In this document: positions 1-25,091 of the stretch, piece by piece
Layout of the letters: each line of letters starts with the position of its first letter
How positions within the stretch are numbered: the stretch's first letter is position 1
NCBI GenBank assembly: GCA_963663275.1
Contig: OY760183.1
Span: 1,312,001-1,376,000, forward strand
From: Chloroflexota bacterium
GTDB taxonomy: Bacteria > Chloroflexota > UBA11872 > VXOZ01
Length of the DNA: 64,000 bases
Reading direction: 5' to 3'
Position numbers and translations under genes: made by a program
The notes under the pieces: generated by a model
The model's database searches: none
Seen by the model: the letters and a program-made list of their open reading frames with translations, nothing else
What the model was told of the DNA's origin: nothing

Positions 1-245
1 CTTGGTCTGGCGCGCCGCGCAAGGAAATCGCCTATGCGCCTACGCCGATGGCGGTCTATGGCGGGCACCGCTGGTCCTATGAGATCATGCGGCGGTTCGT
101 GGCGGAACTGCACACCGGACGCCCGCCCGCGGTGACGCTGGATGACGCGCTGCGCGTGTTGCAGGTCATCGAGGCGGCGTACCAGGCGGCGCGCACCGGC
201 AAACAGGTTGAGGTGCGGTACGGCGTGAACGCGGCCGGCGCGTGA
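1..245 (+). CDS. C-terminal part of a Gfo/Idh/MocA-family oxidoreductase (5' end outside window)
   Basis: Tail 'F..EL.TG.PPAVTLDDALRVLQVIEAAYQAARTGKQV' is typical of Gfo/Idh/MocA C-termini; the frame is open upstream of ATG 48. Confidence 0.7.
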   Translation, partial: WSGAPRKEIAYAPTPMAVYGGHRWSYEIMRRFVAELHTGRPPAVTLDDALRVLQVIEAAYQAARTGKQVEVRYGVNAAGA

Positions 246-266
246 AAATCTTGCACTCGTAAATCT

Positions 267-320
267 CTGGCATTGAGGTGTAGGGGCACGACATGTCGTG
301 CCCCTACACCTCAATGCCAG
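267..320. repeat. 54-bp perfect palindrome centred on a GTAG-type REP
   Basis: CTGGCATTGAGGTGTAGGGGCACGACA|TGTCGTGCCCCTACACCTCAATGCCAG; the core GTAGGGGCACGACATGTCGTGCCCCTAC recurs near 36223. Confidence 0.9.
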
Positions 321-589
321 GACTGCGAACGCGCAATCCGCGTAACCGCGTCTTGTGGCGCCCCTCCATTCTCACACGGCTCTGATGCGACAGGATAGGG
401 GACAAGCCCCAAGGCAGTAGCAATAACGTAGCGCGGCGCTGTTCCCCTCACCCCGGCCCTCTCCCCAGGGAGAGGGGGTTTTCGCAAGCTAGGGAGACGA
501 GGTCTGCGGCGTGCGCCGCGTGGGGGCGGCTGCGGTATAATCGAAAGCGCGCTGACCGGACGCGAGTAGCGACAAAGAGGCGGACGGCT

Positions 590-3662: not shown

Positions 3663-4460
3663 CTATTCGTCGTGGTGGTCTACGCGGGGGCCGTAGGGTA
3701 GGGTGCGCAGGTCGTCCACGATTTCTATGAGCGCCTGGCTTACAGTTTCTAGGATGCGTTCGCCTTTCCAGGCCACGCCGAGGGTGGGATCGCCGCCGGT
3801 GCCGTCTTGCGACATCTTGCTCAGGTAGTCCACGTACTTCACCGGCGAGCCGCCCATCAGGTCGCGGTAGTGCCACTTGGTGCGCACCCGGTAGTCGGCC
3901 CGCGCCTTGTCCATCTGCACCCGCGCCGGATCCAGCGCCAGGTAGATGGACGTCTCGAACTCACCGGCGTGGTCCATGCCGCCGGGATATTCGGACTCGC
4001 GCCACTGCGCAACCTCTTCCTGCGCTAAGTCCCAGTAGGAAACCACGGCGCAGGCGGCGTCGGCGTGCAGCGTAGCGAGGCGCGCGGAGACTTGCAGCAG
4101 CGGGTCGTTGGAGGCGTGTCCATTGACGAAGAGCACGATGGGAAAGCGGTGGTGGGCGAAACTCACCGCTACGTCGTAGCAGTAGTCGATGAAGCGCTGC
4201 GCCTGCACGGAGATGGTGCCGGGAAAGTCCAGGTTGTGCTCGTTGAAGCCGTAGTGGATCGGCGGCGCGCAGAGGAGTCTGTCCGGCGCGGCCTGCGCGG
4301 CGCGCTCGCAGACGGCAAGCGCCGCCACGTTGTCCGTGTCGATCGGCAGGTGCGGGCCGTGCTGCTCGATAGCCGCCACCGGCAGCAGAATTGCCTTCTT
4401 CTCCCGCGCCGCCTCGCGCACCTCCGGCCACGTCAATTTTGCGTAGCGCCATTCCGCCAT
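3663..4460 (-). CDS. Creatininase / creatinine amidohydrolase family protein
   Basis: EQHGPHLP.DTD, NGH and DHAGEFETS motifs; ATG at 4460. Confidence 0.9.
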   Translation of the reverse strand: MAEWRYAKLTWPEVREAAREKKAILLPVAAIEQHGPHLPIDTDNVAALAVCERAAQAAPDRLLCAPPIHYGFNEHNLDFPGTISVQAQRFIDYCYDVAVSFAHHRFPIVLFVNGHASNDPLLQVSARLATLHADAACAVVSYWDLAQEEVAQWRESEYPGGMDHAGEFETSIYLALDPARVQMDKARADYRVRTKWHYRDLMGGSPVKYVDYLSKMSQDGTGGDPTLGVAWKGERILETVSQALIEIVDDLRTLPYGPRVDHHDE

Positions 4461-4611
4461 GGCTTGCCTTTCCGTACAAGCGCTCCGTGGTGTGCCGCTT
4501 CTGGTCTCAGTATAGAGAAGCGCGGCAAGTCGCGGTTGCCTTAACGCCAGGAAAGAGTTTACAGTTGTGCCCAGATAGACCGCGTGTCTCATGAAGTGGA
4601 AGGAGAAATCA

Positions 4612-5976
4612 ATGAGAGACCGCATCCTGAGACGGACGTTTCTCGGCGGCGTTGGCCTAGCCGGAGCGGGTGCGCTGTTCGTGGCCTGCGGGCAGGCGGC
4701 GCCGATGGAAACCGCGGAGGCCCCGGCGGAAGAGGAAGCGCCCAAGGAAGAGGAAGCCCAACCGGCAGCGGCGGAAGCGGTTGAGCTTGAGGTGTGGACT
4801 ACCAGGCGCTGGGACCTCTCGCAGGGTTTGGGTCTGGAGGTCAAGCAGGAGATCGAGGCATTGGTGGAGGGCCTTACCGTCAAGGACCTGATCCCGGAAG
4901 GCAACCGCTTTACCATCTTGATCGCGGCGCAGGCGGCGGGCACCTCGCCGGACATCGGCCAGGTGGGCGTCTGGCAGAACCAGCAGGTGGCGGCCGGCGG
5001 CATCGTCGACAGCCTGGAGCAGTACTACGCCCAATCGCCGGTGATCAACAAGGACGACATCTGGCCCTCGCTGCGCATCGACATGGACCACAAGGGCCAG
5101 GTGTGGAGCATGCCCTTTGGCCCGGACGTGCGCTTCTTCTACATCCACGACAATCTCTACCTGGACGCGGGACTGGACTCGGAAAATCCGCCGGTGACGT
5201 GGACCGACCTGGAGGACGTGATTTCCAAGTCGTTCAAGGGCGGCAATACCATCGAGCAGGTGGCCTGGGGTCCGTTGTGGGCCAACCGCCACGTGTGGAT
5301 GGTGCCCATGTGGCAACTGGGCGGCGAGAACATCAACGACGACCGCACCAAGATAACCCTCAACACCGAGGAAGGCCGCGAGGGCATGGCCTGGCTGAAG
5401 AAGGTACACGACATGCAGGGCGGCTACGACGCGCTGCAAGAGTTCAAGGGCGATGAGAACGCCCGCGCCCACTTCTACGCCAGCCGTCTGGCCAATCTCT
5501 ACGACACCGGCTCCATCCGCTTCGAGAGCATCGCCAAGGAAGCGCCGGATCTGGAGTACCACTGGGGCCACTGGCCCAAGCCCGCCGACGGCGTCAACCG
5601 CACCTACGGCGGCTGTCATACGTGGGTGCTGCCCGTGGGCGCGACCCACAAGGACTTGGGCTGGACGTTCATGGAGCACTTCGGCGTGGAGGACGTGAAC
5701 GTCCGCTGGGCCAAGCACTTCGACCGCCTGCCAATCCGCGTGGACACGTCGTACAGCGAGGCGTACCACGGCGGCGATCCGTTCGTCATCCACCAGGTTG
5801 ACGTGATGGAAGGGCGGCGCTTCGTGGTCTCCGCGCCGGGCGCGAACGAGATGCTCGGCATCATGAGCGGCGGTGTGCCGGATATGCTCACCGGCAAGAC
5901 CACCATCGAGGAAGGCCTGCGGAATACAGAGGCCCAGGCGCAGACAGTGCTCGACGAGTGGCTGGCGCGCGAGTAG
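4612..5976 (+). CDS. Extracellular solute-binding lipoprotein (sugar-type ABC SBP) with Tat signal
   Basis: AGGAG RBS; RRTFLG twin-arginine motif; lipobox VACG; SBP_bac_1-like motifs. Confidence 0.88.
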   Translation: MRDRILRRTFLGGVGLAGAGALFVACGQAAPMETAEAPAEEEAPKEEEAQPAAAEAVELEVWTTRRWDLSQGLGLEVKQEIEALVEGLTVKDLIPEGNRFTILIAAQAAGTSPDIGQVGVWQNQQVAAGGIVDSLEQYYAQSPVINKDDIWPSLRIDMDHKGQVWSMPFGPDVRFFYIHDNLYLDAGLDSENPPVTWTDLEDVISKSFKGGNTIEQVAWGPLWANRHVWMVPMWQLGGENINDDRTKITLNTEEGREGMAWLKKVHDMQGGYDALQEFKGDENARAHFYASRLANLYDTGSIRFESIAKEAPDLEYHWGHWPKPADGVNRTYGGCHTWVLPVGATHKDLGWTFMEHFGVEDVNVRWAKHFDRLPIRVDTSYSEAYHGGDPFVIHQVDVMEGRRFVVSAPGANEMLGIMSGGVPDMLTGKTTIEEGLRNTEAQAQTVLDEWLARE

Positions 5977-6174
5977 GGAGCCACGCTTACCGGGCTAGCG
6001 CAGGCGCTGCAACGCACGTGCGTTCGCTCTGACGGTTGAGAAAAGGGGCATCGAGTACCTCGCTATGCGGCGGGCGTGCTGGGTGCTCCGTTGTTTATAG
6101 CGAAAGTTTGAAATCATGGGCCCTTGCCGGGCCGACTTCAAATTGGGCTCGTAAGTGTGGGGAGGAGAGGCGCA

Positions 6175-7725
6175 ATGCGTGCCGTAGAATTCGACCCCAA
6201 CCTTATCCGGCTGCCGCTGGACTACCAAGGCACGCCGGAACTGGCGGAGATTCGCGTGACCGTGCCCAGCATCGTGCCGCCGGATGTGAGCAACGGCGAA
6301 TTCAAGATTGGCCTAGAATTGCGGGATCGGTGGGGGTTTCATCTACCTAAGCAGAGCGCCCATTTAGAGTTGATGCTAGAAGGCGCAAGCGGTGAGTTCC
6401 CGGCGACCGTGCCCATGCTGCCGGAGTACGACAGCCACTATGCCGTGCGCGGCCGCGTAACCGAAAAGGACACGGTCTTTCGCGTGCGGGCGCGCGACCG
6501 GGAGACCGGCGTCGAGGCGCTGAGCAATCCCGGCTGGGCGCCGGCGTATCTCTACCGGGGCGATCACAAGCTCTACTGGGGCGACCTGCACTGCCACCGG
6601 CTGGAGAATCCCAGCAGAAAACGCGCGGATCCGCTGTTGTGGAGCTATGGGCCCGCCACCGTGCACGAGGTGTACCGGTTTGCCCGGGACGTCGCGCATC
6701 TGGACTTCACGGCGCTCACCGACCACGACTACGCGCTCAGCACCGACGAGTGGCGCGAAATCCAGGAAGGCGCGGAGTTCTACAACCAGCCGGAGCGGTT
6801 CGTGACCTTTCTGGGTTACGAATGGTCCTGGAACCGGGGGCCGGACGCCGACTGCGGCCACCGCAACGTCATCTTTCGTCACGGCGACATGCCGCTGATC
6901 TCCAGCAATTGGCAGGGGTCGAATACGCCGCAGGACCTCTTCAACGTCTTTCGCGGTATCTCCCGCACGGGACGGGATATTCTCTCCATTCCCCATCATC
7001 CGGCGCGCTTGGGCAATCGCATCTGGCACAACTGGGAGACCATGGACCCTGAGTTCGAGCGCCTGATGGAGGTGTATAGCCACTGGGGCAGCAGCGAGCA
7101 TGAGGGCGAGCCTTACGCCTTGAAAGCCCGTAACGAGCGCACCCAGTGGGACGAGCCGCAAGCGGACTATCCACCCTATGAGGCCACCGGACACTTCCTG
7201 CAAGACGGCCTGCGGCGGGGCTTTCGTTTCGGTTTCGTGGGCGGCAGCGAGAGCCACGACGGCCGTGCTACCAGCAGCGTGCAGATCGCGCACTTGCCCA
7301 TCAAGCTGACGACCTTCAACCACCACGCCGGCATGACGGGTCTCTGGTCGCGCCGCCGCGAGCGCGACGCCATGTTCAGCGCGCTCTGGAACCGCCGCGC
7401 CATCGGCACCACCGGCGTGCGTATCCTCCTCGATTTCGACGTGGACAACCAGCCCATGGGCGAAGTCATCAGCGTGCAAACGCCGCCTCAGCGCATGCGC
7501 GTGCGCGTCCACGGCTGCGCGCCGCTGGCCAAGGTGGTCGTGGTGAAGAATAACCGCGATTGGCACGTGGTGGAGCGTCCCGGTTGGGAGTGCGCCTTTA
7601 CGCTGGATGAGATAGAAATGCCGCAAGACCGCACCGATTGGTACTACGTGCGCGTGACGCAGGAGGACGGCGAGATGGCGTGGTCGAGTCCGATTTGGGT
7701 CGAAGACGCGCGCCGGGTGTTTTGA
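6175..7725 (+). CDS. DUF3604 / CehA-McbA family PHP-fold metallohydrolase
   Basis: WGDLHCH, TDHD, GYEWS, HRNVIF, IPHHP, GGSESH; C-terminal YYVRVTQEDGEMAWSSPIW; GGAGG RBS. Confidence 0.85.
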   Translation: MRAVEFDPNLIRLPLDYQGTPELAEIRVTVPSIVPPDVSNGEFKIGLELRDRWGFHLPKQSAHLELMLEGASGEFPATVPMLPEYDSHYAVRGRVTEKDTVFRVRARDRETGVEALSNPGWAPAYLYRGDHKLYWGDLHCHRLENPSRKRADPLLWSYGPATVHEVYRFARDVAHLDFTALTDHDYALSTDEWREIQEGAEFYNQPERFVTFLGYEWSWNRGPDADCGHRNVIFRHGDMPLISSNWQGSNTPQDLFNVFRGISRTGRDILSIPHHPARLGNRIWHNWETMDPEFERLMEVYSHWGSSEHEGEPYALKARNERTQWDEPQADYPPYEATGHFLQDGLRRGFRFGFVGGSESHDGRATSSVQIAHLPIKLTTFNHHAGMTGLWSRRRERDAMFSALWNRRAIGTTGVRILLDFDVDNQPMGEVISVQTPPQRMRVRVHGCAPLAKVVVVKNNRDWHVVERPGWECAFTLDEIEMPQDRTDWYYVRVTQEDGEMAWSSPIWVEDARRVF

Positions 7726-8112: not shown

Positions 8113-8293
8113 GGGACAAGCCCCCGCGCTACGGTGATGTGGGACGGTTCGCGATCCGCCCCTACGTTTCGCCGTGGGTACACGTCCGTAGCGGGCAAAA
8201 AGCGCCTGGCGCCATGCTGTGATACGATACCGCAGGGTTGGAGTGTCATAGAAGAGGCAATGCGAGCGGCAAGACGAAAGGGTGCGGTCAGAC

Positions 8294-10126
8294 ATGTCTG
8301 CGAACGCCAACGGACGGTTTCAGGTCAGCGCAGAGGGGCCGCTGCGGGTTGGGGAGATAGTGCCGCTGGCGTTGCGTTACGCGCCGCCTGCGGGGGGCCT
8401 GCGGGCCGGCGGCAATCTTTGGTTCTTCTACGACATCCGGCAGTTCGGCGACCGCCGGCACGTGTACGGGGCGGACGGGGTAAGCGTGCGCGGGCCGGCG
8501 GGAACGGCCTGGGAAGCCCGGGGGCTGATGGACGGACGCCAGGTGCGTACGTTCGACCTTCATCCGCCCGCGCCCGAGTTCCTCCACGCCGTGCACGTGC
8601 GGTGCGCGCAGGGCACGCTGGCGGAGGATGACGAGATTACCGTGCACGTGCGCACCGCGCCTGAGGGTTTCGTGCTGCCGGTGAACGCCATCGACGCCTT
8701 TCGCTTCTGGCTGGTGGAAGACCCAACGGGCGCGCTCACGCTCTATCACCCCGAGCGCGACAAGTATCACTACTTCCTGCCGCGGGCGGCGGAACTTTCC
8801 GTGCTGGAGAGCAATGCGCTCACCATCAGGGAAGCGGAACCGGCCGCGCTGCAAGTGACCGCGCCTTCCCATGCCACAGGTCACGCAGACACGCGCGTCG
8901 TCGTCACCGACCGCTTTGGCAATCCCATCCACGACGCCGCAGGCGAAGTTGCCTTGCGCACCGCCAGCGGCGAGACGGCGGCCGCGCTGAACTCGTTTAG
9001 CGCCGAGGCGTCCGTGCCGGTGCGCGGGCCGGTGGAACGGGTGACGGCGTCGTATAACGGCATCCAGGCCGCCAGCAATCCGGTGCGGGTTGACAAGGAT
9101 ACGGAACCGTTCACGCTCTATTGGGGCGATCCCCACGGCATGTTGTTCAACCAGCGCCCGATTGTGGAGCACTTCGCCTGGGGCAAGGACGTGAACGCCC
9201 TCGACTTTGCCGGCGGGCAGCTCTTTTCGTACAGCATCTGCATCAGCGAAATCTGGGAAGAGTTGCAGGAGGCGTGGGCGCAATACGACCTGCCGGGCGA
9301 GTTCGTGGCCTTGCCGTCGGCGGAGTTCGCCACCGGCCCGGACGGCAGCCACCGGCATGGATTCTTCCCTGCGCCTGCGGGCCAACCGCCGGTGTTCTGT
9401 GAGGACCGTCCCGCCGCCAACGACCCCAAACTGCACGCGCGCTTTCACCCCGATACCGTCTACTGCCGCGACTACCAGGAGTTCTACCGCGAGATGAAGC
9501 GCCGGGGCGCGCTCATCCACGGCCACTTCCACACTCACTTCTACGTGCAGGAGCACCTGGCGGAGATTTACCAAAAGCAACAAACCGACGGATTTACTGA
9601 GGAAGAAAAAATCAACCAGTTTCTGATGCGCGGCGTGAAACTCGGCATCGTCAGCGGCAGCGATACCCACGATAACCGGCCCGCCAATCCCTATAAAGAG
9701 CCGGGCCCGTCCGGCCCCGCCGGGCTGACCGGCGTGTGGGCGGAACGGCTCGACCGTCCGGCCATTTTCGAGGCGCTCTTCAACCGGCGCTGCTACGCCA
9801 CCACCGGCGCGCGCATCATCGTGGACTTCCGCGTGAACGGCACGTGGGTGGGTTCCACGATACAGGCCGACCGCTTCACGTTCGCGGCGGACGTGGCCGG
9901 CACGGCGGACATCGAACAGATCGACCTGGTGGTGAACGGCGATACGGCCAGAAGCTACACGCCCAACCGGCAGCACGCTCAGATAGAGGATGAGGTACCG
10001 CTGCGGTTCTCGCCGGTGAATGCCAACTACTGCTACCTGCGCGTGCGGCAGGTGGACGGAAACCGCGCGTGGACGAGTCCGGTTTGGCTGGAGCCAACCG
10101 TCACTCCGGCGAAAGCCGGAGTCTAG
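8294..10126 (+). CDS. DUF3604-family protein with divergent metal-binding motifs
   Basis: YWGDPHG, HRHGFF, SGSDTHD, RRCYATTG.RI, YLRVRQ.DG..AWTSPVW. Confidence 0.8.
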   Translation: MSANANGRFQVSAEGPLRVGEIVPLALRYAPPAGGLRAGGNLWFFYDIRQFGDRRHVYGADGVSVRGPAGTAWEARGLMDGRQVRTFDLHPPAPEFLHAVHVRCAQGTLAEDDEITVHVRTAPEGFVLPVNAIDAFRFWLVEDPTGALTLYHPERDKYHYFLPRAAELSVLESNALTIREAEPAALQVTAPSHATGHADTRVVVTDRFGNPIHDAAGEVALRTASGETAAALNSFSAEASVPVRGPVERVTASYNGIQAASNPVRVDKDTEPFTLYWGDPHGMLFNQRPIVEHFAWGKDVNALDFAGGQLFSYSICISEIWEELQEAWAQYDLPGEFVALPSAEFATGPDGSHRHGFFPAPAGQPPVFCEDRPAANDPKLHARFHPDTVYCRDYQEFYREMKRRGALIHGHFHTHFYVQEHLAEIYQKQQTDGFTEEEKINQFLMRGVKLGIVSGSDTHDNRPANPYKEPGPSGPAGLTGVWAERLDRPAIFEALFNRRCYATTGARIIVDFRVNGTWVGSTIQADRFTFAADVAGTADIEQIDLVVNGDTARSYTPNRQHAQIEDEVPLRFSPVNANYCYLRVRQVDGNRAWTSPVWLEPTVTPAKAGV

Positions 10127-10177: not shown

Positions 10178-11251
10178 ATGGAAGAAATCGAACTCTGGGC
10201 GATTGAAGACTCTCAGATCGTGCCCATAGAGCGCGCAAAGATGGACTTGGAGAGCAGTTTGGAGGACACGCTTGTCGCACACCCGGACATGTTATTGCCT
10301 AATCTAAAGCTGGTATGCCGACAAACGCCAGTAGGCGGTGGGAAGCTTGATCTACTGGGCGTCGATGATGAAGGCAAGCTTGCTGTATTCGAGCTAAAGC
10401 GCGGCCCGGTACCTCGGGACGCCGTAGGCCAAGTGATAGATTATGCGTCTGCACTCGAAGCCATGAGTGAGAGCGAATTAGCCGCCCTGATCTCCGAATA
10501 CTCCGGTCGGCTCGGAATCGAAGAAATAGGCAACTTTGCGGAATGGTACAGCGAAGGGTTCAGGTTATCACTGGACTCTTTACGACCAGTGAGTATGTAC
10601 CTCGTTGGCCTGGGAACAGATGATACTACTAAGCGCATGGTGGACTATCTGACTGAACATGGCGTGGATATATCCCTTCTAACTTTCAACGGCTTTGCAT
10701 ACTCGGGCAAGACCTTGCTAGCCAAACAGGTGCAAGTAGCTCCTGTTGTGCCATCACATCTATCACGGGAGGAGCGATTGCGTTCGCTTGAAAGTCTCGC
10801 AACGGAAATGGGTGTAGCCGACCTCATGGCTGCGGCGAAGGATATGTTCTCTAGTTCCTGGGACAAAGTGACTCAGGGGAGGTACTCGTCTCTCCCGAAT
10901 CCAGAGCCAACAAAGACGGGGATAACATACTACTTGCCACGACTGAATGATTCGGGGAATTCCTCCAGCCCCGCTTTTTCGTCCATCCAACTGGACGAAA
11001 AAGAGAGAGCAGTCAAAGTGCGGTTCTATCCGCGGGCAATAGATCTATGCATAGAGAGGTTCGCCCAACTGGACCCCAAGAAGATCCCGTTTGAAAAACA
11101 AACTCCACGCAATGCGGCCACAACGGATCGAGTGAAACAGGAGATTCTATTCCCCTTGTATTCACTCGACGAATGGGAGGCGCGCAAAGGCAAGTTGGGT
11201 GAATTGACGCGAGCTACCTTTGAGGGTTGGATGGAAGAAGAGGGTCAGTAG
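10178..11251 (+). CDS. NucS/DUF91-like PD-(D/E)xK endonuclease domain protein (lower-GC insert)
   Basis: DLLGVD...FELKRG and Q...Y (GQVIDYA) motifs; AT-richer codons than neighbours; GAGG RBS. Confidence 0.8.
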   Translation: MEEIELWAIEDSQIVPIERAKMDLESSLEDTLVAHPDMLLPNLKLVCRQTPVGGGKLDLLGVDDEGKLAVFELKRGPVPRDAVGQVIDYASALEAMSESELAALISEYSGRLGIEEIGNFAEWYSEGFRLSLDSLRPVSMYLVGLGTDDTTKRMVDYLTEHGVDISLLTFNGFAYSGKTLLAKQVQVAPVVPSHLSREERLRSLESLATEMGVADLMAAAKDMFSSSWDKVTQGRYSSLPNPEPTKTGITYYLPRLNDSGNSSSPAFSSIQLDEKERAVKVRFYPRAIDLCIERFAQLDPKKIPFEKQTPRNAATTDRVKQEILFPLYSLDEWEARKGKLGELTRATFEGWMEEEGQ

Positions 11252-11392: not shown

Positions 11393-12502
11393 ATGGCTGA
11401 TTTTGCGCGCATAACGCGGTCAATGGAAGAACAGCGCTTGGACGCGCTGGTGACGCTCGGCATGCGCAACTGCGCCTATTTGGCCGGCGCCGTCAGCGAG
11501 GGGCCGTGGCTCAATGAGCCGCAGGGCCTCGCGCCGTGGATGACGTGTCTCATACCGCCCGACCGGTCGTTTACGTTTGGCGGCGGCGTGGGGGATGCCG
11601 ATCTGCCGGTGGAGGGGTTTGCGCCCGACCACACGCGGGCGGCGCGGTTGACGGAACTGGCGGCGCAGATGCGCCGGCGCGGATTGGCCCGAGCGCGCAT
11701 CGGCCTGGACATGGACTTCGCCTCGGCCAGCGACCTGGCGCGGCTGCGGGAACTGCTGCCGGAGGCCGCGTTCGTATCCGCCGACCTGCTGCTGGCCGCC
11801 GCGCGGGCCTGCAAGACGCCGCAGGAAATTCAATGGCTGCGCAAGGCGATTGCCGCATCTGAGGCCGGGTATCGGGAAATGCTGCGCGAGGTGCGTGTGG
11901 GCATGACCTTTCAAGATTTGGTGACGGTCTGGGCCAAGGCGGTGCTGGACAACGGCGCCTTGCCGATCAATACGTCGCCGGTCTCGTGGATGCTGCCCGG
12001 CGGCGGCACGAGCCTGCGGGAGCAGCCGGACGCGGCGGTGATTCGCGGTCCCGGCATTGTGGAGGCGGGCTTGGTCTACCGCGTGGATCTGGCCGCCATC
12101 TCCGGCGGCTATTTTTCCGACCAGAAGTTCAATTTCAGCGTGGGCGCGCCGCGCGAGGCGAGCCTGGCGGTCTGGCGGCAGCACCGCGAGCGGCAACTGT
12201 TCATGGAAGATTTCGTGCGTCCCGGCAAGACCAAACGCGAGGTATTCGACGCCTGCCAGCGCGCGTTCACGGACACGGACGAGTACGCCTGGTGGATTCA
12301 CGGCGTCGGCATGGATAAGCACGAGGAGCCGTTGATCGGCAGTTTGCTGCCGGCCGCGGTTGACGTGCGGCCGGAAATCACGTTTGCGGAGAACAACGTG
12401 GTGTCGCTGGAGTCGTCGTGGCTGGAGGAGGACATGTACGTTTTGAAACAGGATGGGTTCGAGCGGTTGGGGACGATTCCGCAGGAAGTGGCGATTGTGT
12501 GA
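11393..12502 (+). CDS. M24-family (Xaa-Pro peptidase/creatinase fold) metallopeptidase
   Basis: KTPQEI..LRKA; D..D in VDLAAISGGYFSD; HGVGMDKHE; E..EED. Confidence 0.85.
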   Translation: MADFARITRSMEEQRLDALVTLGMRNCAYLAGAVSEGPWLNEPQGLAPWMTCLIPPDRSFTFGGGVGDADLPVEGFAPDHTRAARLTELAAQMRRRGLARARIGLDMDFASASDLARLRELLPEAAFVSADLLLAAARACKTPQEIQWLRKAIAASEAGYREMLREVRVGMTFQDLVTVWAKAVLDNGALPINTSPVSWMLPGGGTSLREQPDAAVIRGPGIVEAGLVYRVDLAAISGGYFSDQKFNFSVGAPREASLAVWRQHRERQLFMEDFVRPGKTKREVFDACQRAFTDTDEYAWWIHGVGMDKHEEPLIGSLLPAAVDVRPEITFAENNVVSLESSWLEEDMYVLKQDGFERLGTIPQEVAIV

Positions 12503-12642
12503 GTGGTGGGATTGGTTTTCCCCGTGTGCGGGATTGGCGGATTGTGCCCGGTGGATGTGGGCGACCACGAGAAGCACAGAGGGCAACCACAAGGGTTGCC
12601 CCTACGGCATTCATGCAATAGACAAATTGAAAGGAGAGGCCG

Positions 12643-14001
12643 ATGGCAATTGCGGAGCGGCAGGAGACCGGCGTGCTGCCGGAGGGGGTGCGCGCGCCGT
12701 ATGATTGGGCGCTGGAGCAGATGCGCGTGCCGGAGGCTCACGCCATAACCCAGGGCAGCCCGGACGTGGTGGTGGCGGTCATCGACTTGGGGTACCGGTT
12801 TCATCCCGACCATGAAGGCCATTTGTGGGTCAATCCCCGTCCCACGCGCGGCGACGTGCACGGCTGGGACTTTGCCGAGGAGGACGCCACGCTCGAATAC
12901 GAAGGGTCGCGCGACGATACCACCTACCTTCGCGGGCACCATGCGTTCGTCGTGGGAGAGGTGGCGGCCACCGCGCCCGCATGTCCCATCATGGTCTTGC
13001 GCGTCGGCTACGAGCCGCATCACCAGAAGAGTTGGCCGCGCGCCGTGCGCTACGCGGTGGACCATGGGGCCAAGGTGCTCGTGATGCCCCACGGCTACAT
13101 CACCCTGGACCACACCGACGGCGTGCCGCTGTTCTACAAAGGCACCGACTTCAGCTATCCGTATGACAACATCGGCCTCATCGAGGCGCTGGACTATGCG
13201 TATCAATCGGGCTGCCTGGTCTTCAAGGGCACGGCGGACAATCGCGGGCGACGGGTCGCCACCGTAAACGCCGGTATTGACAGCGTCTTTGCCGTCGGCT
13301 CCACGAACCGGCACGGGCGCGCGGCGAACATCGCGGCCTCGGCGGACTACGTAGAAGCGGCCACGCCCGGCGGCGAGCGCAATACGGACGACCCGACCGA
13401 GTCGATTTGGGGCACCGGCGGCGACCGCGACTACATACCGTTCGAGGGCGGCTGCATGGCGTCGGCCTTTGGCGGCGGCGTCGCGGCGCTGGCGTTTTCC
13501 CAATATCCGCACCTTTCTAATCGCGAGATACGAGAAATCCTGCGCAATACGTCCCAGGGCAGCGGCTGGGATCCCCTGCTGGGTCACGGTATCTTCGACG
13601 CCTATAGCGCCGTTTCGCTTGCGCCGCGCGAACTCTCGGCGGGACTGCGCGTCGATACGGCGGCATCCCAGGTGCGCCGTGATGATGGGCGGCTGGTGGC
13701 GGAGATCGTGGTGGAAAACACCGGTGCGTTCGACGTGCGCCGGATGCTGGCGGTGGCGTTCAACGGCGATCCTAAGACGGCCGCCGATGCCGATGCGACT
13801 CGTGAGGAGTCGAATATCCTGATACGGCGTCAAATCGGACACTGTATCGGGGCTGCGCCAGGTTTGGAGCGCGCGTCTGTATCGCTTGAATTAGACGGCG
13901 ATTCGCCGGATGAGGTGTGGGTGCAGGTGAACGCGCTGGACACGGGTATGGCGGGGGTCTACGATACGGCGCGAATTCTTCCTGACGGCGGCACAGCCTG
14001 A
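12643..14001 (+). CDS. S8 subtilase-fold protein with Cys in place of the catalytic Ser
   Basis: VVVAVIDLG (D48), GHHAFVVG (H99), TADN (N200), EGGCMAS..GGVAAL (C271); GGAG RBS. Confidence 0.85.
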   Translation: MAIAERQETGVLPEGVRAPYDWALEQMRVPEAHAITQGSPDVVVAVIDLGYRFHPDHEGHLWVNPRPTRGDVHGWDFAEEDATLEYEGSRDDTTYLRGHHAFVVGEVAATAPACPIMVLRVGYEPHHQKSWPRAVRYAVDHGAKVLVMPHGYITLDHTDGVPLFYKGTDFSYPYDNIGLIEALDYAYQSGCLVFKGTADNRGRRVATVNAGIDSVFAVGSTNRHGRAANIAASADYVEAATPGGERNTDDPTESIWGTGGDRDYIPFEGGCMASAFGGGVAALAFSQYPHLSNREIREILRNTSQGSGWDPLLGHGIFDAYSAVSLAPRELSAGLRVDTAASQVRRDDGRLVAEIVVENTGAFDVRRMLAVAFNGDPKTAADADATREESNILIRRQIGHCIGAAPGLERASVSLELDGDSPDEVWVQVNALDTGMAGVYDTARILPDGGTA

Positions 14002-14195: not shown

Positions 14196-15215
14196 ATGCG
14201 CATTGCAGCCGTTGAGGTCGCGCCTTGGAAAGATGACGCCGCGTTTGTCTACTCGGTGGTCTTCGACGAAGGCACCATCGATTGCCTGGCGAACGCCTTT
14301 CCCATTGGGCAGCGGTACGGCATTGCCGGCGACGTTGCGGTGGTGGCCGGGCAACTGGGCGAGAAGCGCCACGTGGAGCGCAGTTCGCTCAACGACTACT
14401 TCCACATGGGGCCGGAGCACCTGAAGTTTCTCCTCTCCCAGGGCTGGAGCGTCAGCAATCACAGCTACTCGCATCCGCCGTTGCGCGACCCCAGCCGCAT
14501 CGACTTTGCCCAGGAGGTCGTGGAGTCGTACCACACGCTGGAGCGCGCGCTCGGCCAACCGGCGCCGATCTTCTCTTCGTGGAACAGCTTTGAGGTCTAC
14601 GACGCGGTGCGGGCGTGGGTGCGGCGCGTGCCCGGCTACCTGGGCCTCACCCGCGCCTCCAACGACGCGGAGCACATCAACCCGCCGGACTTCGACCCGT
14701 TCAGCATCTGGCGCAACCGCCTGTGCGAGGACGATGAGATCGAGTATCTGCCGGAGTGGCTCTCGCGGCGCGGGTTCGCGCCGGAGCGGGCGCGGGGGCA
14801 GTGGCTGGTGGACGTGACCCATTTGGTGATGTACAAGACGCCCCAGGGGCACAAGTGCATCTCGCCGCGGGCGCTGGAAGGGCGCTTCGACCAGATGCGC
14901 ACGGCCTTTGGCGATGCGCTGTGGGCGGCGAACCCGGACGACGTGGTGCGCTACGCCTATTTGCGCCGCCATTGCGCGCCCGCCGTCACGCAGGAAGCGG
15001 ACGCCCGCGCGACCATCACTGTGGACTTTCCGGATCTGCCGCCGCAAATAGAGGAAGGCGAGTTGACATTCCTCGTCTCCTTTTCCGATGATACAGGACC
15101 GATACGTGTCCAAGGCCCGGACGGCGCGGCGTCCGTATCCCCGGCCGGCGAGCGGCGCGTCCGCTTCACCTGCCGCGTGGCCCCCGGCGCGGCGATAACG
15201 CTGGCAAGCCCGTAG
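14196..15215 (+). CDS. Polysaccharide deacetylase (CE4)-like protein
   Basis: SVVFDE (TFDD-like) and SNHSYSHP (HxxxH) motifs. Confidence 0.7.
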   Translation: MRIAAVEVAPWKDDAAFVYSVVFDEGTIDCLANAFPIGQRYGIAGDVAVVAGQLGEKRHVERSSLNDYFHMGPEHLKFLLSQGWSVSNHSYSHPPLRDPSRIDFAQEVVESYHTLERALGQPAPIFSSWNSFEVYDAVRAWVRRVPGYLGLTRASNDAEHINPPDFDPFSIWRNRLCEDDEIEYLPEWLSRRGFAPERARGQWLVDVTHLVMYKTPQGHKCISPRALEGRFDQMRTAFGDALWAANPDDVVRYAYLRRHCAPAVTQEADARATITVDFPDLPPQIEEGELTFLVSFSDDTGPIRVQGPDGAASVSPAGERRVRFTCRVAPGAAITLASP

Positions 15216-17086: not shown

Positions 17087-18220
17087 CTACCAATCCGTCA
17101 CCGAGCCGTCCTCCCGGCGCAAGCGGGCGTGTTCCCAGTACTGATACGGGCTTTCCTGCGCCGCCGCGGCGTTGAACGCAATGCCGATGCCGGGTACGTC
17201 GGCGGGCATGAGGTGTCCCGCCTCCACGCGGCATTGGGTGGGGAAGATGTCCGTCATGGCCGGCGGCACCATGGAGAGTTCCTGGATGCCGAAGTTGGGA
17301 ATGCACATGTCCAGTTGCACGCTGGCGGCGGTGTTCACCGGCCCCAGCGGATTGTGCAGCGCCGTGTCGATGTAGTGCGTCTCGCACATGGCGGCAATCT
17401 TCTTGCCCTCAGTAATGCCGCCGACCAATCCCAGGTCGGCGCGGGCGTAGTCGATCCACTCGTTCTCGATCAGTTCCCGGAATTGCCATTTGGTGAGCAG
17501 TTGCTCGCCGGTGGCGATGGGGACGCTGGTGTGGTGGCGCAGGTTGGCGAACGACTGGGGGTTCTCCGAGCGGATCGGGTCTTCGATGAAGAACGGGCGC
17601 AGCGGCTCGAGGCGTTTACATAACTGGATAGCCCACGTCGGGTTGAGGCGGGTGTGCACGTCGAGGGCGATTTCGATTTCATGCCCCACGGTGTCGCGCA
17701 CCGCTTGAAAGGCCTCTACCGTGTCGCACACCGCCCGCGCCGGTTCCAGGATGTCGTCCTGATCGGTCGGCAGCCCGAAGCGCACCACCTCGAAGCCTTC
17801 ATCCACCCGCGCCTTGGCGGCCTGCGCGAACGTCTCCGGGCTGTCGCCGCCAAAATGCGCGTAGCAGCGGACTTTGTCGCGGGTCTTGCCGCCCAGCAGT
17901 TGGTAGGTTGGGACTTCCAGCGCCTTGCCGAGGAGGTCCCACAGCGCGATGTCGAGGGCAGATATCGTCGCCGTGAGCACCGGGCCGGCGCGCCAGAAGT
18001 TGCCGCGAAAGTGGTCCTGCCAGATGTGCTCGATGCGGAAAGCATCTTGTCCGAGGAGCAGCGGTTTGTAGTGGTCCACAGCCGCCGCGACCGCCAAGTC
18101 CTTGCCCGAACACCCGGATTCGCCAATGCCGTAGAGACCGTTCTCCGCGGTGACGGTGACAAAGGTGTAGTTGCGCGCACCGTTGTTTACGGTGTGGGTC
18201 TGTACGTCGCTGATCTTCAT
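17087..18220 (-). CDS. Mandelate racemase/enolase-superfamily dehydratase (DgoD/RspA-like)
   Basis: DIALWDLLGK; D(VH), E(DP) and (TG)E metal ligands; HNP. Confidence 0.9.
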   Translation of the reverse strand: MKISDVQTHTVNNGARNYTFVTVTAENGLYGIGESGCSGKDLAVAAAVDHYKPLLLGQDAFRIEHIWQDHFRGNFWRAGPVLTATISALDIALWDLLGKALEVPTYQLLGGKTRDKVRCYAHFGGDSPETFAQAAKARVDEGFEVVRFGLPTDQDDILEPARAVCDTVEAFQAVRDTVGHEIEIALDVHTRLNPTWAIQLCKRLEPLRPFFIEDPIRSENPQSFANLRHHTSVPIATGEQLLTKWQFRELIENEWIDYARADLGLVGGITEGKKIAAMCETHYIDTALHNPLGPVNTAASVQLDMCIPNFGIQELSMVPPAMTDIFPTQCRVEAGHLMPADVPGIGIAFNAAAAQESPYQYWEHARLRREDGSVTDW

Positions 18221-18478
18221 GGGTTGCCCTCCGGCATTGGCTAGGCCGCGCAAGGAAGTCGCGCGGCCGCGGTTACAGGCGCAATCCGGCGCCAAGATGC
18301 GGGGGACAAGCCCCCGCGCTACGGTTTGGTTAGACGGTAGCACAGACGTGTGAATTGCGCCCGTCGGTAGGGGCAACCCTTGTGGTTGCCGGCGCGGTCG
18401 TTGCCGTAGCCATTGGTCAACCACGAGGGTTGCCCCTACGGTGGAAATGGGCAGGGACGAGGGTTGCCCATTCCGGTG

Positions 18479-22226: not shown

Positions 22227-22250
22227 TAAAGTGTGAATGGAGGAGTTGGC

Positions 22251-22994
22251 ATGTTTGGTTGGCGTGGACGCATTGGATTGCTGGTGCCGTCGGTGAATAC
22301 GGTGGTGGAGCCGGAGGGCTGCGCCTTGTTGCCCGAGGGGTATTCCGTTTTTGCCACCCGTATGCGCAACTCCCGCTCGGACGCCGACGACATGGCGCAG
22401 ATGTGCGCCCACGTGGATCGCGGCGTGGACGAACTGCTCAGCGCGCGGGTGGACGCGATCGCCTTTGCCTGCACGGCCGGCAGTTTCTTCGAAGGCGCGG
22501 ACGGTGAAGAGGCATTGCGCGCGCGGCTGCGCGGCGGCAGCCCGATCGAAGCCGTGACGACGGCCGGCGCGGTGGCCGGGGCCTTGCGCGCGCTGGACGC
22601 GCAGCGCGTGGCTATGGTCACGCCGTATATCCCGGAACTGAACGACCTCGAAGTAAAGTTCCTGCAAGACTGGGGTTTCGACGTGGTGAGCCAAGCCGGC
22701 ATGGGCATTCTCACGGCCTTCGACATCGGCGTGGTGCCGCTGGCGGAAACCTACCGCTTTGCCCGGGACCACGTTGCCGAAGATGCCGACGCGCTCTTCA
22801 TTAGCTGCACCAATCTCCGCACCATGGACGTGATCCAGGCGCTGGAAGAGGACCTGGGCATTCCCGTAGTGACGAGCAATCAAGCCACCTACTGGCAATG
22901 CCTGCGCGCCCTGGGTCACACGGCGGCGATTTCCGGTTACGGCCGGCTGTTCGAACTCTCACCGGCGGCGCGTCCCGTGCCCGTGACCGTCTAG
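22251..22994 (+). CDS. Asp/Glu racemase-family protein (maleate isomerase/arylmalonate decarboxylase-like)
   Basis: PSVNTVVE, ACTAGS, TPY, ISCTNL, TSNQA; GGAGGAG RBS. Confidence 0.9.
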   Translation: MFGWRGRIGLLVPSVNTVVEPEGCALLPEGYSVFATRMRNSRSDADDMAQMCAHVDRGVDELLSARVDAIAFACTAGSFFEGADGEEALRARLRGGSPIEAVTTAGAVAGALRALDAQRVAMVTPYIPELNDLEVKFLQDWGFDVVSQAGMGILTAFDIGVVPLAETYRFARDHVAEDADALFISCTNLRTMDVIQALEEDLGIPVVTSNQATYWQCLRALGHTAAISGYGRLFELSPAARPVPVTV

Positions 22995-23003
22995 GCGGCG
23001 CTT

Positions 23004-25091
23004 GTGGACTCAACGTTGCGCATCGGGGTGGATATTGGGGGCACGTTCACCGACCTCGTCTTCATGGACGCCCAGGGGCTGCGGGCGTGGACCAAGGTTT
23101 CGTCCACGGCTGACGACTTTGCCCAGGGCATCGTGCGGGGTCTCGACGCGCTCATCAACGAGACGAACGCCGCCAGCGCGGACATCCACGAAGTCATCCA
23201 CGCCACCACCGTGGCGACGAACGCGATTCTGGAGGGCAAGGGCGCGCCCACGGGCCTCATCACTACCGCGGGCTTTCGCGACGTGCTGGAGATCCGGCGG
23301 CTGCGCATGCCCCGCCTCTACGATTTGCGCTGGGAGCCGCCGCAACCGCTGGTGCCGCGCGCGCTGCGGCGCGAGGTTGACGAACGCATCGACACGGACG
23401 GCGGCGTGGTGCGCGAACTTGATGAGGCCAGCGTCCACGCGGCCATAGCGCGCCTGCTCGACGCGGGCGTGCAGTCGATCGCGGTCTGCCTCATCAACTC
23501 CTACCGCAATCCGGCGCATGAAGAGCGCATCGGCGCGCTGCTCCACGCGGCGGCGCCTGACGTGTTCGTTTCCCTTTCATCCCACGTCCTGCCGGAAATC
23601 CGCGAGTACGAACGCACGAGCACGACGGTGATCAATGCCTACATCGCCCCCGTGATGCGCTCGTACCTCAACCGGCTCCAGGAGTCTTTCGACGACCGGC
23701 GCATTACCGCGCCGGTGTACATGATGCAGTCCGCCGGCGGCATGATGGGCGCGGCCAAGGCGGCGGAGCAGCCGATCCACGTGATCGAGTCCGGGCCCGC
23801 CGCCGGTGTGATGGGCGCGCTCTCGCTGGCGAACGCGATGGACGTTGGCAACGCGATTACGCTCGACATGGGCGGCACCACAGCCAAGGCGTCGGTGATC
23901 GAGGACGGCCGCATCACGCGCACGAACGACTACGAGGTCGGCGGCGGCATCAGCCTCAGCGCGCGTCTGCAACGGGGCGCGGGCTACGCGCTGCGGGTGC
24001 CTGCGATTGACATTGCGGAAGTCGGCGCCGGCGGCGGCAGCATCGCGTGGATCGATCCGGCCGGCGGGCTGCGCGTGGGGCCGCACAGCGCGGGCGCGGA
24101 GCCGGGCCCGGTGTGCTACGCCCTGGGCGGCAAGGAGCCGACCCTCACCGATGCCAACGTCGCGCTGGGCTTCCTGAACCCCACGCACTTCCTGGGGGGC
24201 GAACTGCCGATCGACGCGGCCCGCGCGCGCGCCGTCTTGGAGGAGCGGCTGGGGGCGCCGCTTGGCTTGAGCGTCGAAGATGCGGCTCTCGGCATCCATC
24301 GCATCGCGGTCTCCCACATGAGCCGCGCCGTGCGGGCGGTTACGGTGGAGCGCGGACGGTCGCCCGCCGACTTCGCGCTGTTCGCCTTTGGCGGCAGCGG
24401 CCCGCTGCACGCCGCCGAAATGGCGCGGGAACTTGGCATCCGGCAGGTGGTCGTGCCGCCGTTTCCGGGGTTGTTTAGCTCGTTGGGCCTCCTGTGCGTG
24501 GACGTTGCCCAGCACGCCTCGCAGACGGTGCTGCTGCCGCTCGATGCCGTGAGCGAAACGGAAATCAACCAACACTATGAAGCCTTAGAGTCGCGGCTGG
24601 CCGGTGAGCTTGGGGTGGACGGCGACGCGCGGCGTCTTGGCGCGTGGCAGCGTTTCGCGGACTTGCGCTATCAGGGACAGTCCTTCGAACTCACCGTTCC
24701 CTTCCAGGAGTCGAAGCCGGCGGTGATGCGGGAGGCGTTCGAGCGCGAACACGAGCGTACCTACGGACACAAAGCGCCGGACGATCCGGTGGAACTCGTC
24801 AACCTGCGGGTTGAGGTCACGCTGCCGCGTGAAGGCGCGCACCGGTGGGGCAGCGCCGGGGCCGGCAGGGAATTGGTGGACGGCCCGCAGGAGCGGCCCG
24901 CGTACTTTGGCGGCGCGGTTGGCGAACGGAGTGTGCCGTTGCTCGCCCGCCGCGAACTGGATTCAAGAGCGCGGCCCGGCCCGTTGATTGTGGAAGAGTA
25001 TGACACGACCATCCTCGTGCCGCCGCAGTGCACGGTGCGGCGGGACGATTGGGACAACGTGGTGATCGCCGTAGGGGAGGCGCAGTCGTGA
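23004..25091 (+). CDS. hyuA: Hydantoinase A / 5-oxoprolinase subunit
   Basis: DIGGTFTD, HATTVATN, ESGPAAG, DMGGTT, SAGAEPGP, FGGSGPLH. Confidence 0.92.
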   Translation: MDSTLRIGVDIGGTFTDLVFMDAQGLRAWTKVSSTADDFAQGIVRGLDALINETNAASADIHEVIHATTVATNAILEGKGAPTGLITTAGFRDVLEIRRLRMPRLYDLRWEPPQPLVPRALRREVDERIDTDGGVVRELDEASVHAAIARLLDAGVQSIAVCLINSYRNPAHEERIGALLHAAAPDVFVSLSSHVLPEIREYERTSTTVINAYIAPVMRSYLNRLQESFDDRRITAPVYMMQSAGGMMGAAKAAEQPIHVIESGPAAGVMGALSLANAMDVGNAITLDMGGTTAKASVIEDGRITRTNDYEVGGGISLSARLQRGAGYALRVPAIDIAEVGAGGGSIAWIDPAGGLRVGPHSAGAEPGPVCYALGGKEPTLTDANVALGFLNPTHFLGGELPIDAARARAVLEERLGAPLGLSVEDAALGIHRIAVSHMSRAVRAVTVERGRSPADFALFAFGGSGPLHAAEMARELGIRQVVVPPFPGLFSSLGLLCVDVAQHASQTVLLPLDAVSETEINQHYEALESRLAGELGVDGDARRLGAWQRFADLRYQGQSFELTVPFQESKPAVMREAFEREHERTYGHKAPDDPVELVNLRVEVTLPREGAHRWGSAGAGRELVDGPQERPAYFGGAVGERSVPLLARRELDSRARPGPLIVEEYDTTILVPPQCTVRRDDWDNVVIAVGEAQS

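Follow-up and report, generated by a model that had tools for sequence, protein, structure and literature searches.

A natural, conserved family of subtilisin-fold proteins with cysteine at the nucleophile position

Natural exchange of a serine nucleophile for cysteine is known from other folds, in the chymotrypsin-fold viral 3C cysteine proteases and in the alpha/beta-hydrolase dienelactone hydrolase (Cys-His-Asp); the event considered here would be of the same kind, a natural Cys on a Ser-His-Asp scaffold, in a different fold. For the subtilisin fold, PMC6642262 and PMC7921005 present thiol-subtilisin as the first 'chemical mutant' enzyme, as the ancestor of present peptide ligases and as a catalyst usually seen as artificial and crippled. 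S221C thiol-subtilisin is strongly impaired, and P225A restores activity by easing the crowding that comes from the larger sulphur, the S221C/P225A enzyme being subtiligase (PMC7921005). Ser-to-Cys exchange in such triads is treated as an engineering problem in PMC6642262, which asks whether cysteine lipases occur naturally. The literature that we searched, a scope outside which lay most subscription journals, the MEROPS commentary and supplements, described, unrelated papers aside, engineered thiol-subtilisins only and no natural Cys-nucleophile subtilase. Here we describe a gene at 12643-14001 of a 64,000-nucleotide stretch of a Chloroflexota genome (contig OY760183.1, positions 1,312,001 to 1,376,000; "the window" is this whole stretch) whose product, together with its relatives (the S8-Cys family), has the subtilisin fold and carries Cys at the position of the catalytic Ser. 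We consider it about 60% probable that the S8-Cys protein is catalytically active through its thiol, most likely as an amidohydrolase whose substrate is small and anionic.

The gene and the parts of its product on which the argument depends are the following.

12643..14001, + strand: gene for the S8-fold protein with Cys at the nucleophile position (P0001), an open reading frame (ORF) of 452 amino acids
12631..12636, + strand: AAGGAG, Shine-Dalgarno-like by sequence inspection, 6 nucleotides 5' of the ATG at 12643
12673..13620, + strand: subtilisin-fold catalytic domain, residues 11-326 (AlphaFold2 model, VIA-align)
12784..12786, + strand: Asp48 codon, catalytic acid position (VIDLG), aligned with the catalytic Asp by MAFFT and profile
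12937..12939, + strand: His99 codon, catalytic base position (GHHAF), aligned with the catalytic His by MAFFT and profile
13087..13170, + strand: cleft strand P149-H150-G151-Y152 and conserved insertion, residues 153-176 (LFYxGTDFxYPxDN), from MAFFT and the phmmer alignment to 1tec
13240..13254, + strand: Asn200 at the oxyanion-hole position (TADN), then R201-G202-R203-R204, by alignment
13453..13455, + strand: Cys271 codon (TGC), nucleophile position (GGCMA), by sequence and alignment
13465..13467, + strand: Ala275 codon, matching Pro225 of subtilisin BPN' (GGCmasgf aligned with GTCMASPH)
13633..13998, + strand: C-terminal beta-sandwich domain, residues 331-452 (model of the domain folded alone)

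Residues 41-316 of the protein match Pfam PF00082 (Peptidase_S8) at 52.3 bits, above the gathering score of 21.8, and the best NCBIfam match is the mycosin model TIGR03921 (97.9 bits, E = 6.1e-28), whose cut-off of 278.75 is not reached. The catalytic positions were mapped in a MAFFT alignment of 30 proteins that combined the S8-Cys family with 31-35%-identical intermediates and classic Ser subtilases. This alignment paired VIDLG with VIDTG or VIDSG, GHHAF with GHGTH, TADN with AAGN and GGCMA with GTSMA, and a profile of 36 family members run against PDB sequences returned the same catalytic map. The top PDB match of the profile was 1gns_A (E = 1e-18), a variant of subtilisin BPN' in which the nucleophile site is likewise Cys (GTCMAS), and the profile alignment set R201 opposite the residue that follows the BPN' oxyanion Asn (Glu in GNEG). 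We take the BPN' equivalents to be D48=D32, H99=H64, N200=N155, R201=E156, C271=221, A275=P225 and F276=H226. The order Asp-His-nucleophile is thereby kept (D48, H99, C271), with Cys in place of the Ser of GTSMA, and by fold and sequence the protein is an S8 homologue that, to judge from these positions, is not a serine peptidase. A pairwise phmmer alignment of the single sequence to thermitase also matched GGCMA to the Ser motif; its placement of HGTH opposite residues 91-94, not H99, was overruled by the profile and by the MAFFT alignment with intermediates.

Cysteine at this position is conserved throughout the family. A word-indexed search gave 207 proteins at E <= 1e-3 among 8000 scored, and the query was aligned with the best 120 of these 207 (121 rows, two of them fragments of 300-376 amino acids). 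The best 120 relatives are 45-88% identical to the query over more than 83% of its length; those with names are called 'S8 family serine peptidase' or 'hypothetical protein' and come from metagenome-assembled genomes (MAGs) of Armatimonadetes, Verrucomicrobia, Isosphaeraceae and Anaerolineae. Cys271 is present in 121/121 rows, as are Gly269, Gly270, Met272 and Asn200, each; Asp48 is kept in 119/119 non-gap rows and His99 in 119/120, the remaining row having Pro. Nearly as constant are the arginines beyond Asn200 (Arg201 118/121, Arg203 121/121, Arg204 120/121) and the residues of the cleft region (His150 119/121; G167 and D169 both 121/121), and the family-specific invariant His and Cys residues are H33, H54, H60, H73, H100, H150, H400 and C114. 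These alignments agree with the sequence-only reading of the window, which had noted D48, H99 and N200 as intact and GTSMA as replaced by GGCMA (TGC at 13453-13455) and had suggested that the protein may represent a natural Cys-His-Asp subtilase subfamily; the ORF, profile and MAFFT results confirm the residues, the family alignment extends the subfamily across phyla, and the close homologues, which that reading had allowed might all carry Ser, carry Cys.

The same residue recurs at the level of independent genomes. Among species-representative genomes, 457 stretches matched the family patterns; tblastn confirmed 333, a number that includes distant classic Ser subtilases, and 79 loci were kept. 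GGCM[AS] is encoded in 52 of these 79 loci (L001-L052), with TGC in 41 and TGT in 11, and the S8-Cys loci fall in Chloroflexota, Gemmatimonadota, Verrucomicrobiota, Kiritimatiellota, Planctomycetota, Armatimonadota, Lentisphaerales, Clostridia and a few other groups. The host genome of the window is a single 3.53-Mb contig. Within its genus the gene is present in 15/16 genomes, the genome without it being 69% complete, and it was found in only 1/24 genomes from other families of the class; this patchy, accessory occurrence fits horizontal spread. Same-genus orthologues are 87-90% identical in protein sequence. Across 445 aligned codons, comparisons with four of them gave 31-43 differences at codon position 1, 22-30 at position 2 and 192-202 at position 3, with 165-176 synonymous and 43-57 non-synonymous codon changes; the gene is under purifying selection. 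A greedy ORF caller favoured an antisense ORF in the window (12298..13842, - strand, 514 amino acids). The + frame is the one that agrees with the homologues, with Pfam and with the third-position pattern, and we therefore discarded the antisense ORF as a shadow of high GC content.

An error in the assembly, or a mutation private to the host genome, is an exceedingly improbable source of Cys271, given Cys in 121/121 relatives, 52 independent loci that use both Cys codons, and the gene's presence in 15/16 same-genus genomes. Logan contigs from run X1, possibly the source sample, show 0 differences from the window across 12895-14001, where their word depth is ~70. Contigs of two runs from other studies (X2 and X3) represent diverged relatives of the gene, and among the matches listed they show no difference at the Cys codon, 13453-13455, which by itself does not amount to proof. 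On the evidence of the relatives, the independent loci, the same-genus genomes and X1, Cys271 is neither a sequencing error nor a one-genome mutation.

To place the family among S8 proteins, we used an exhaustive search of 1.84 billion representatives, which gave 6476 matches at E <= 1e-3, 394 at E <= 1e-10 and 30 at E <= 1e-30. A hidden Markov model alignment of 148 listed representatives (P0122-P0269) and the query comprised 162 domain rows, and Cys occupied the nucleophile column in 25/162. Of the Cys rows, all that extend over the remaining sites keep His and Asn; their acid is Asp in 10 rows and Glu in 4. A midpoint-rooted FastTree tree was built from the 112 proteins in which none of the three triad columns is missing, without fragments and second domains, and in it 14 Cys-bearing proteins fall in one clade with support of 0.979, together with a single Ser-bearing member, P0137. 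The tree places the Cys-bearing S8 proteins in a monophyletic clade and thereby shows a single evolutionary origin. P0137 reads GQSAA inside this otherwise Cys-only clade and may be a reversion or an early branch. The sister groups retain Pro at the 225-equivalent (GGCMAxPHV); among the sister Cys-bearing proteins that keep Pro, P0138, P0139 (~1200 amino acids), P0140 and P0147 have signal-like N-termini and long C-terminal extensions, and P0138 has Pec_lyase and GH127-like matches that are sub-threshold only.

A distant paralogue of this Pro-retaining type, 33-36% identical, is encoded in the window's own genome (501 amino acids; G000:C1 ~3094.4-3095.9 kb, - strand, equal to L081:874-2379, - strand). 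Its motifs are VIEKG, with Glu for the catalytic Asp, DHGTH, GGNQ and GGCMAIPHV, and it has a similar C-terminal domain with Q-L-G-H; its mycosin-model score of 206.8 bits falls short of the cut-off of 278.75. On these motifs, the paralogue would be a Glu-His-Cys variant of the subtilase triad. At window positions 12754-12785 the X1, X2 and X3 contigs break off or fork, and the loose contig ends there encode the I-E-K-G-I-D-V-G-H-P-D-L stretch of the Glu-type paralogue; a stretch of ~30 nucleotides is common to both S8 genes, and thus short-read assemblies split at 12754-12785. Runs X3, X4, X6 and X7, all labelled 'sponge metagenome', contain partial contigs of the S8-Cys gene that are 90-99% alike, an observation to which we attach no habitat claim. 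None of the runs listed as containing the gene was an RNA run. One same-genus orthologue (G016:C1:1632206-1633555, + strand) has one in-frame TGA inside its match to query residues 1-450, which is either the normal stop in an over-extended match or a real break.

Besides the nucleophile, the equivalent of Pro225 differs from classic S8 enzymes. The column that matches BPN' Pro225 in the family alignment lacks Pro altogether; its 121 rows hold Gly (104), Ala (11), Ser (5) and Glu (1). The Thr that precedes the nucleophile in classic S8 proteins is replaced by Gly, which is invariant in the S8-Cys family. We regard the replacement of Pro225 as the strongest sequence-level hint that the thiol acts as the nucleophile.

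An AlphaFold2 model computed from a 36-sequence alignment had a mean predicted local distance difference test (pLDDT) score of 90.9 and a predicted template modelling (pTM) score of 0.91. VIA-align superposed it on thermitase 1thm with Z = 35.0 and a root-mean-square deviation (rmsd) of 2.5 A over 260 aligned residues (model 11..326 against chain 4..279), and on savinase entries with Z = 34.6 and an rmsd of 2.0-2.1 A (255/269). Foldseek searches of the PDB likewise returned subtilisins, with peptiligase variants first (7am3, E = 4.9e-19, template modelling score 0.84 on the target), a lead over wild-type subtilisin that lies within noise (E = 4.9e-19 vs 1.5e-18). In the model, Asp48 ends strand 43-48, Asn200 lies just past strand 192-196 and Cys271 begins helix 270-287. 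The elements that bear the four catalytic residues match the subtilisin topology, which, with the global rmsd of 2.0-2.5 A, gives support for the predicted triad geometry that is indirect only.

The N-terminus also departs from that of secreted subtilisins. An in-frame TGA lies 4 codons 5' of the ATG at 12643 and the protein therefore cannot extend further in this direction; residues 1-45 contain, by inspection, no hydrophobic stretch; and model residue 11 corresponds in VIA-align to residue 1 of mature subtilisins, so the protein has no propeptide. An absence of signal peptide and propeptide, as claimed from the sequence alone, therefore holds for the window gene. Across the 121 family members, the median number of residues before the catalytic Asp is 45, and 12/121 have 55 or more. 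Seven N-termini that we read (P0057, P0077, P0108, P0112, P0116, P0117 and P0118, six of them among those 12) contain hydrophobic, signal-like segments, and P0057 has a twin-arginine-like motif, RRRFLKG; no propeptide was found in family members, including those with signal-like N-termini. The suggestion of a cytoplasmic protein made at the same time stands for the window gene and for most members and appears not to hold for this minority, and a cytoplasmic location would be the rule rather than a law in the S8-Cys family.

The substrate-binding region appears to be remodelled. In the MAFFT alignment, the P-H-G-Y/F segment corresponds to the S-L-G-G type strand of classic S8 proteins, which pairs with the substrate backbone, and the alignment to 1tec shows an insertion of 20 residues relative to thermitase after the PHGY strand. 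R201 replaces a Glu that we take to lie at the rim of the BPN' S1 pocket. From these features we infer that the cleft may be a closed, specific pocket for an anionic acyl group.

Compared with engineered thiol-subtilisin, subtiligase, peptiligase and omniligase, the S8-Cys family likewise has Cys as the nucleophile-site residue and, in 120/121 members, a small side chain where BPN' has Pro225, and these enzymes supply its best profile match (1gns_A) and its top Foldseek matches. Unlike them, it is natural, only ~21-27% identical, under purifying selection, and has a remodelled cleft and an added domain. With subtilisin, thermitase and savinase (S8A) it has in common the fold of the entire catalytic domain, the sites of Asp, His, oxyanion Asn and nucleophile and the order in which they occur, and a PF00082 score above cut-off. 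It differs from these enzymes in having Cys for Ser, GGC for GTS and no Pro at the 225-equivalent, in the P-H-G-Y/F strand, the 20-residue insertion, the Arg cluster and the extra C-terminal beta-sandwich, and, for the window gene, in lacking the signal peptide and propeptide that secreted S8A enzymes with an I9 propeptide both have. Mycosins, the subtilases of type VII secretion, provide the best NCBIfam match (TIGR03921) and are among the better PDB sequence matches; however, they are membrane-anchored, secreted Ser enzymes, the S8-Cys score is far under their cut-off, and no type VII genes lie near the S8-Cys gene in the window.

The gene stands among other predicted hydrolases and enzymes of amine and amide metabolism in the window.

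3663-5003, - strand: creatininase-family gene with a 187-residue N-terminal extension, upstream
6124-7725, + strand: DUF3604/CehA-McbA-like metallohydrolase gene, upstream
8282-10126, + strand: DUF3604/CehA-McbA-like metallohydrolase gene, upstream
10178-11251, + strand: gene for a 357-amino-acid protein with a match to the NucS C-terminal nuclease domain (NucS_C-like) at residues 25-94 and nothing assigned in its remainder, between the DUF3604 and M24 genes
11393..12502, + strand: M24/creatinase-N-like gene (PF00557 and PF01321), a linked neighbour in Chloroflexota
14196..15215, + strand: polysaccharide-deacetylase-like gene (PF01522, E = 1.1e-8), the most widely conserved neighbour
Downstream: Band-7 protein gene
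17087-18424, - strand: MR/MLE enolase-superfamily gene, downstream
Downstream: aminotransferase gene
22233-22994, + strand: arylmalonate-decarboxylase (Amdase)/Asp-Glu-racemase-type gene, further downstream
23004-26827, + strand: hydantoinase/oxoprolinase A and B subunit genes, further downstream

Amide- and hydantoin-type enzymes (creatininase-family, Amdase-type, hydantoinase A/B) are encoded in the window in unusual number. Conservation of the neighbourhood was assessed by clustering the ORFs of 37 loci (L001, L007, L011 and L014-L047), four of them from Chloroflexota of the same genus and several on short contigs of 3-10 kb. Because shadow ORFs misled the ORF caller, the S8 genes of L030 and L035 and the window's deacetylase-like gene escaped it, and the neighbour counts over the 37 loci are therefore lower bounds. 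A deacetylase-like neighbour occurs in at least 18/37 loci from several phyla, mostly directly adjacent; a Gfo/Idh/MocA oxidoreductase in at least 15/37, a URO-D/MtaA-like protein in at least 10/37, a DegT-type aminotransferase in at least 9/37, an M24-like protein in at least 9/37, an AraC regulator in at least 8/37, and DUF3604 in at least 8/37 plus the window. Other neighbours include isochorismatase-like, BPL_N/GATase-like, M14-like, DUF4962, DAO, MR/MLE, solute-binding (including family-5) and BNR-repeat proteins. In three Planctomycetaceae MAGs (L036, L039 and L040), the S8-Cys gene is preceded by a BNR-repeat (sialidase-like) protein and by a ~500-residue protein without a Pfam match, the latter in one or two copies. 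A literature search on DUF3604 found nothing relevant.

Linkage is also conserved among close relatives. The deacetylase-like gene is present in 16/16 same-genus genomes and lies ~1 kb from S8-Cys in the one genome of another family that has S8-Cys; the M24-like gene is present in 15/16 same-genus genomes. Five same-genus genomes have a second S8-Cys copy (59-61% identical), and in 5/5 a second M24 copy (62-63% identical) lies within ~400 nucleotides of it (~50 nucleotides in four), so the pair has been duplicated and kept together. The surrounding hydrolase cluster pointed out by the sequence-only reading is thus real and, to judge from the neighbours in the window and across the loci, partly conserved. 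The cluster looks catabolic, with a nitrogen-containing conjugate (amino sugar, amino acid or amide type) as the compound broken down.

The best reading of the S8-Cys protein, in our view, is a thiol-dependent amidohydrolase, possibly an acyl-transferase, in an accessory catabolic cluster. In the proposed mechanism, Cys271, His99 and Asp48 would form the triad and Asn200 the oxyanion hole of an active, propeptide-less subtilisin-fold enzyme; with Cys271 as the triad nucleophile, catalysis would proceed by way of a thioester acyl-enzyme. The peptide-binding cleft would have been rebuilt by the P-H-G-Y/F strand, the 20-residue insertion and the invariant Arg cluster past the oxyanion Asn, so that the most likely reaction would be intracellular hydrolysis of an amide (or ester) bond, the substrate being small, probably anionic and either N-acylated or peptide-like. 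Such hydrolysis would contribute one step to the breakdown of a nitrogen compound, for example an amino sugar or amino-acid conjugate, by an accessory catabolic cluster that has spread horizontally. The small-molecule amidase, esterase or acyl-transferase activity put forward in the sequence-only reading is suggested by the remodelled cleft together with the gene context. Several points weigh against this reading. Engineered thiol-subtilisin is a poor amidase (PMC6642262 and PMC7921005), so Cys in a subtilisin fold does not guarantee hydrolase activity. The model puts His99 five residues into helix 94-110, not at its first turn, and the phmmer pairwise alignment to thermitase put the catalytic His away from H99. 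The argument from the Arg cluster to a putative anionic substrate is drawn from background knowledge of the BPN' S1 pocket; a minority of family members look exported; and neighbour sets differ between phyla, with none of the neighbours reaching a curated NCBIfam cut-off, so no pathway can be named.

Retention of the whole subtilisin scaffold would also suit a cysteine endo- or exopeptidase that acts on peptides or proteins, for example by feeding Xaa-Pro or short peptides to the adjacent M24 enzyme, and the tight, co-duplicated linkage to an M24/creatinase-N-type protein (a family that includes prolidases and aminopeptidases) points the same way, as do M14-like and family-5 solute-binding-protein neighbours in other loci. 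However, the strand that would pair with a peptide substrate is changed to P-H-G-Y/F and followed by the conserved 20-residue insertion, many neighbours are of sugar or amine type (Gfo/Idh/MocA, DegT, deacetylase-like), and the M24 neighbour scores far under all curated peptidase cut-offs; we think a peptidase rather unlikely. A natural acyl-transferase, ligase or transpeptidase, in which an amine and not water resolves the thioester as in subtiligase and peptiligase, would explain why the family shows the same two changes as subtiligase (Cys at 221 and a small residue for Pro225), would fit the peptiligase variants at the top of the Foldseek list, and would exploit the intrinsically greater proneness of a thioester to aminolysis (PMC7921005). 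The context nevertheless looks catabolic in that it holds AraC regulators, solute-binding proteins and numerous hydrolases, neither precursor-peptide nor biosynthetic genes were seen in it, and the Foldseek ranking is within noise; this alternative is distinctly unlikely. In its fullest form, as a monophyletic, phylum-spanning clade of natural subtiligases that acquired a Cys nucleophile, lost Pro225, dispensed with the propeptide and came to use the thioester in an acyl-transfer reaction, be it ligation, transpeptidation or transamidation, with a metabolite or peptide as substrate, the idea is speculative and we hold it to be doubtful. The family-specific invariant His and Cys residues listed above (H33, H54, H60, H73, H100, H150, H400 and C114) could instead belong to a dead pseudo-enzyme or to a binding, redox or metal-sensing protein in which Cys271, conserved His and Cys114 take part in metal or disulphide chemistry, and thiol-subtilisin is a poor enzyme (PMC6642262). 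Pseudo-enzymes usually lose triad residues, whereas Asp, His, Asn and Cys are kept here across phyla, with only Asp-to-Glu variation in the wider clade, and replacement of Pro225 is expected if a thiol must act as nucleophile; as to a metal site, H150 aligns with a residue that lines the S4 pocket and does not touch the nucleophile. A non-catalytic role is very unlikely.

If Cys is the nucleophile, a natural, widespread and conserved clade of Cys subtilases would show evolution solving the thiol-subtilisin problem with the same compensating change, and with folding without a propeptide. With this clade, the subtilisin clan (clan SB) would gain a cysteine catalytic type, the name 'S8 family serine peptidase' that databases give to these proteins would need correction, and ligase or thioesterase engineering would have dozens of natural scaffolds to start from; a natural subtiligase, if true, would be a template for peptide-ligase engineering. 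The loci also flag a conserved, uncharacterised cluster of probable catabolic function (deacetylase-like, M24-like, Gfo/Idh/MocA, DegT and URO-D-like proteins) in Chloroflexota, Verrucomicrobiota, Planctomycetota, Armatimonadota and other groups.

Searches for alternative architectures found no fused or longer forms of S8-Cys at E <= 1e-40 among proteins of 792-2260 amino acids, which is weak evidence, and ESM Atlas returned generic S8/subtilase clusters only, with CARDB annotated on some related ones. The C-terminal 122 residues folded alone as an eight-strand, all-beta sandwich with a pLDDT of 91.3, and the best structural match among 48,161 chains was to the immunoglobulin-like domains of GH2 (glycoside hydrolase family 2) enzymes (Z = 9.5); the predicted domain is a generic beta-sandwich fold that gives no functional lead. 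Within it, Q397 and H400 (RQIGH) are invariant in 121/121 family members.

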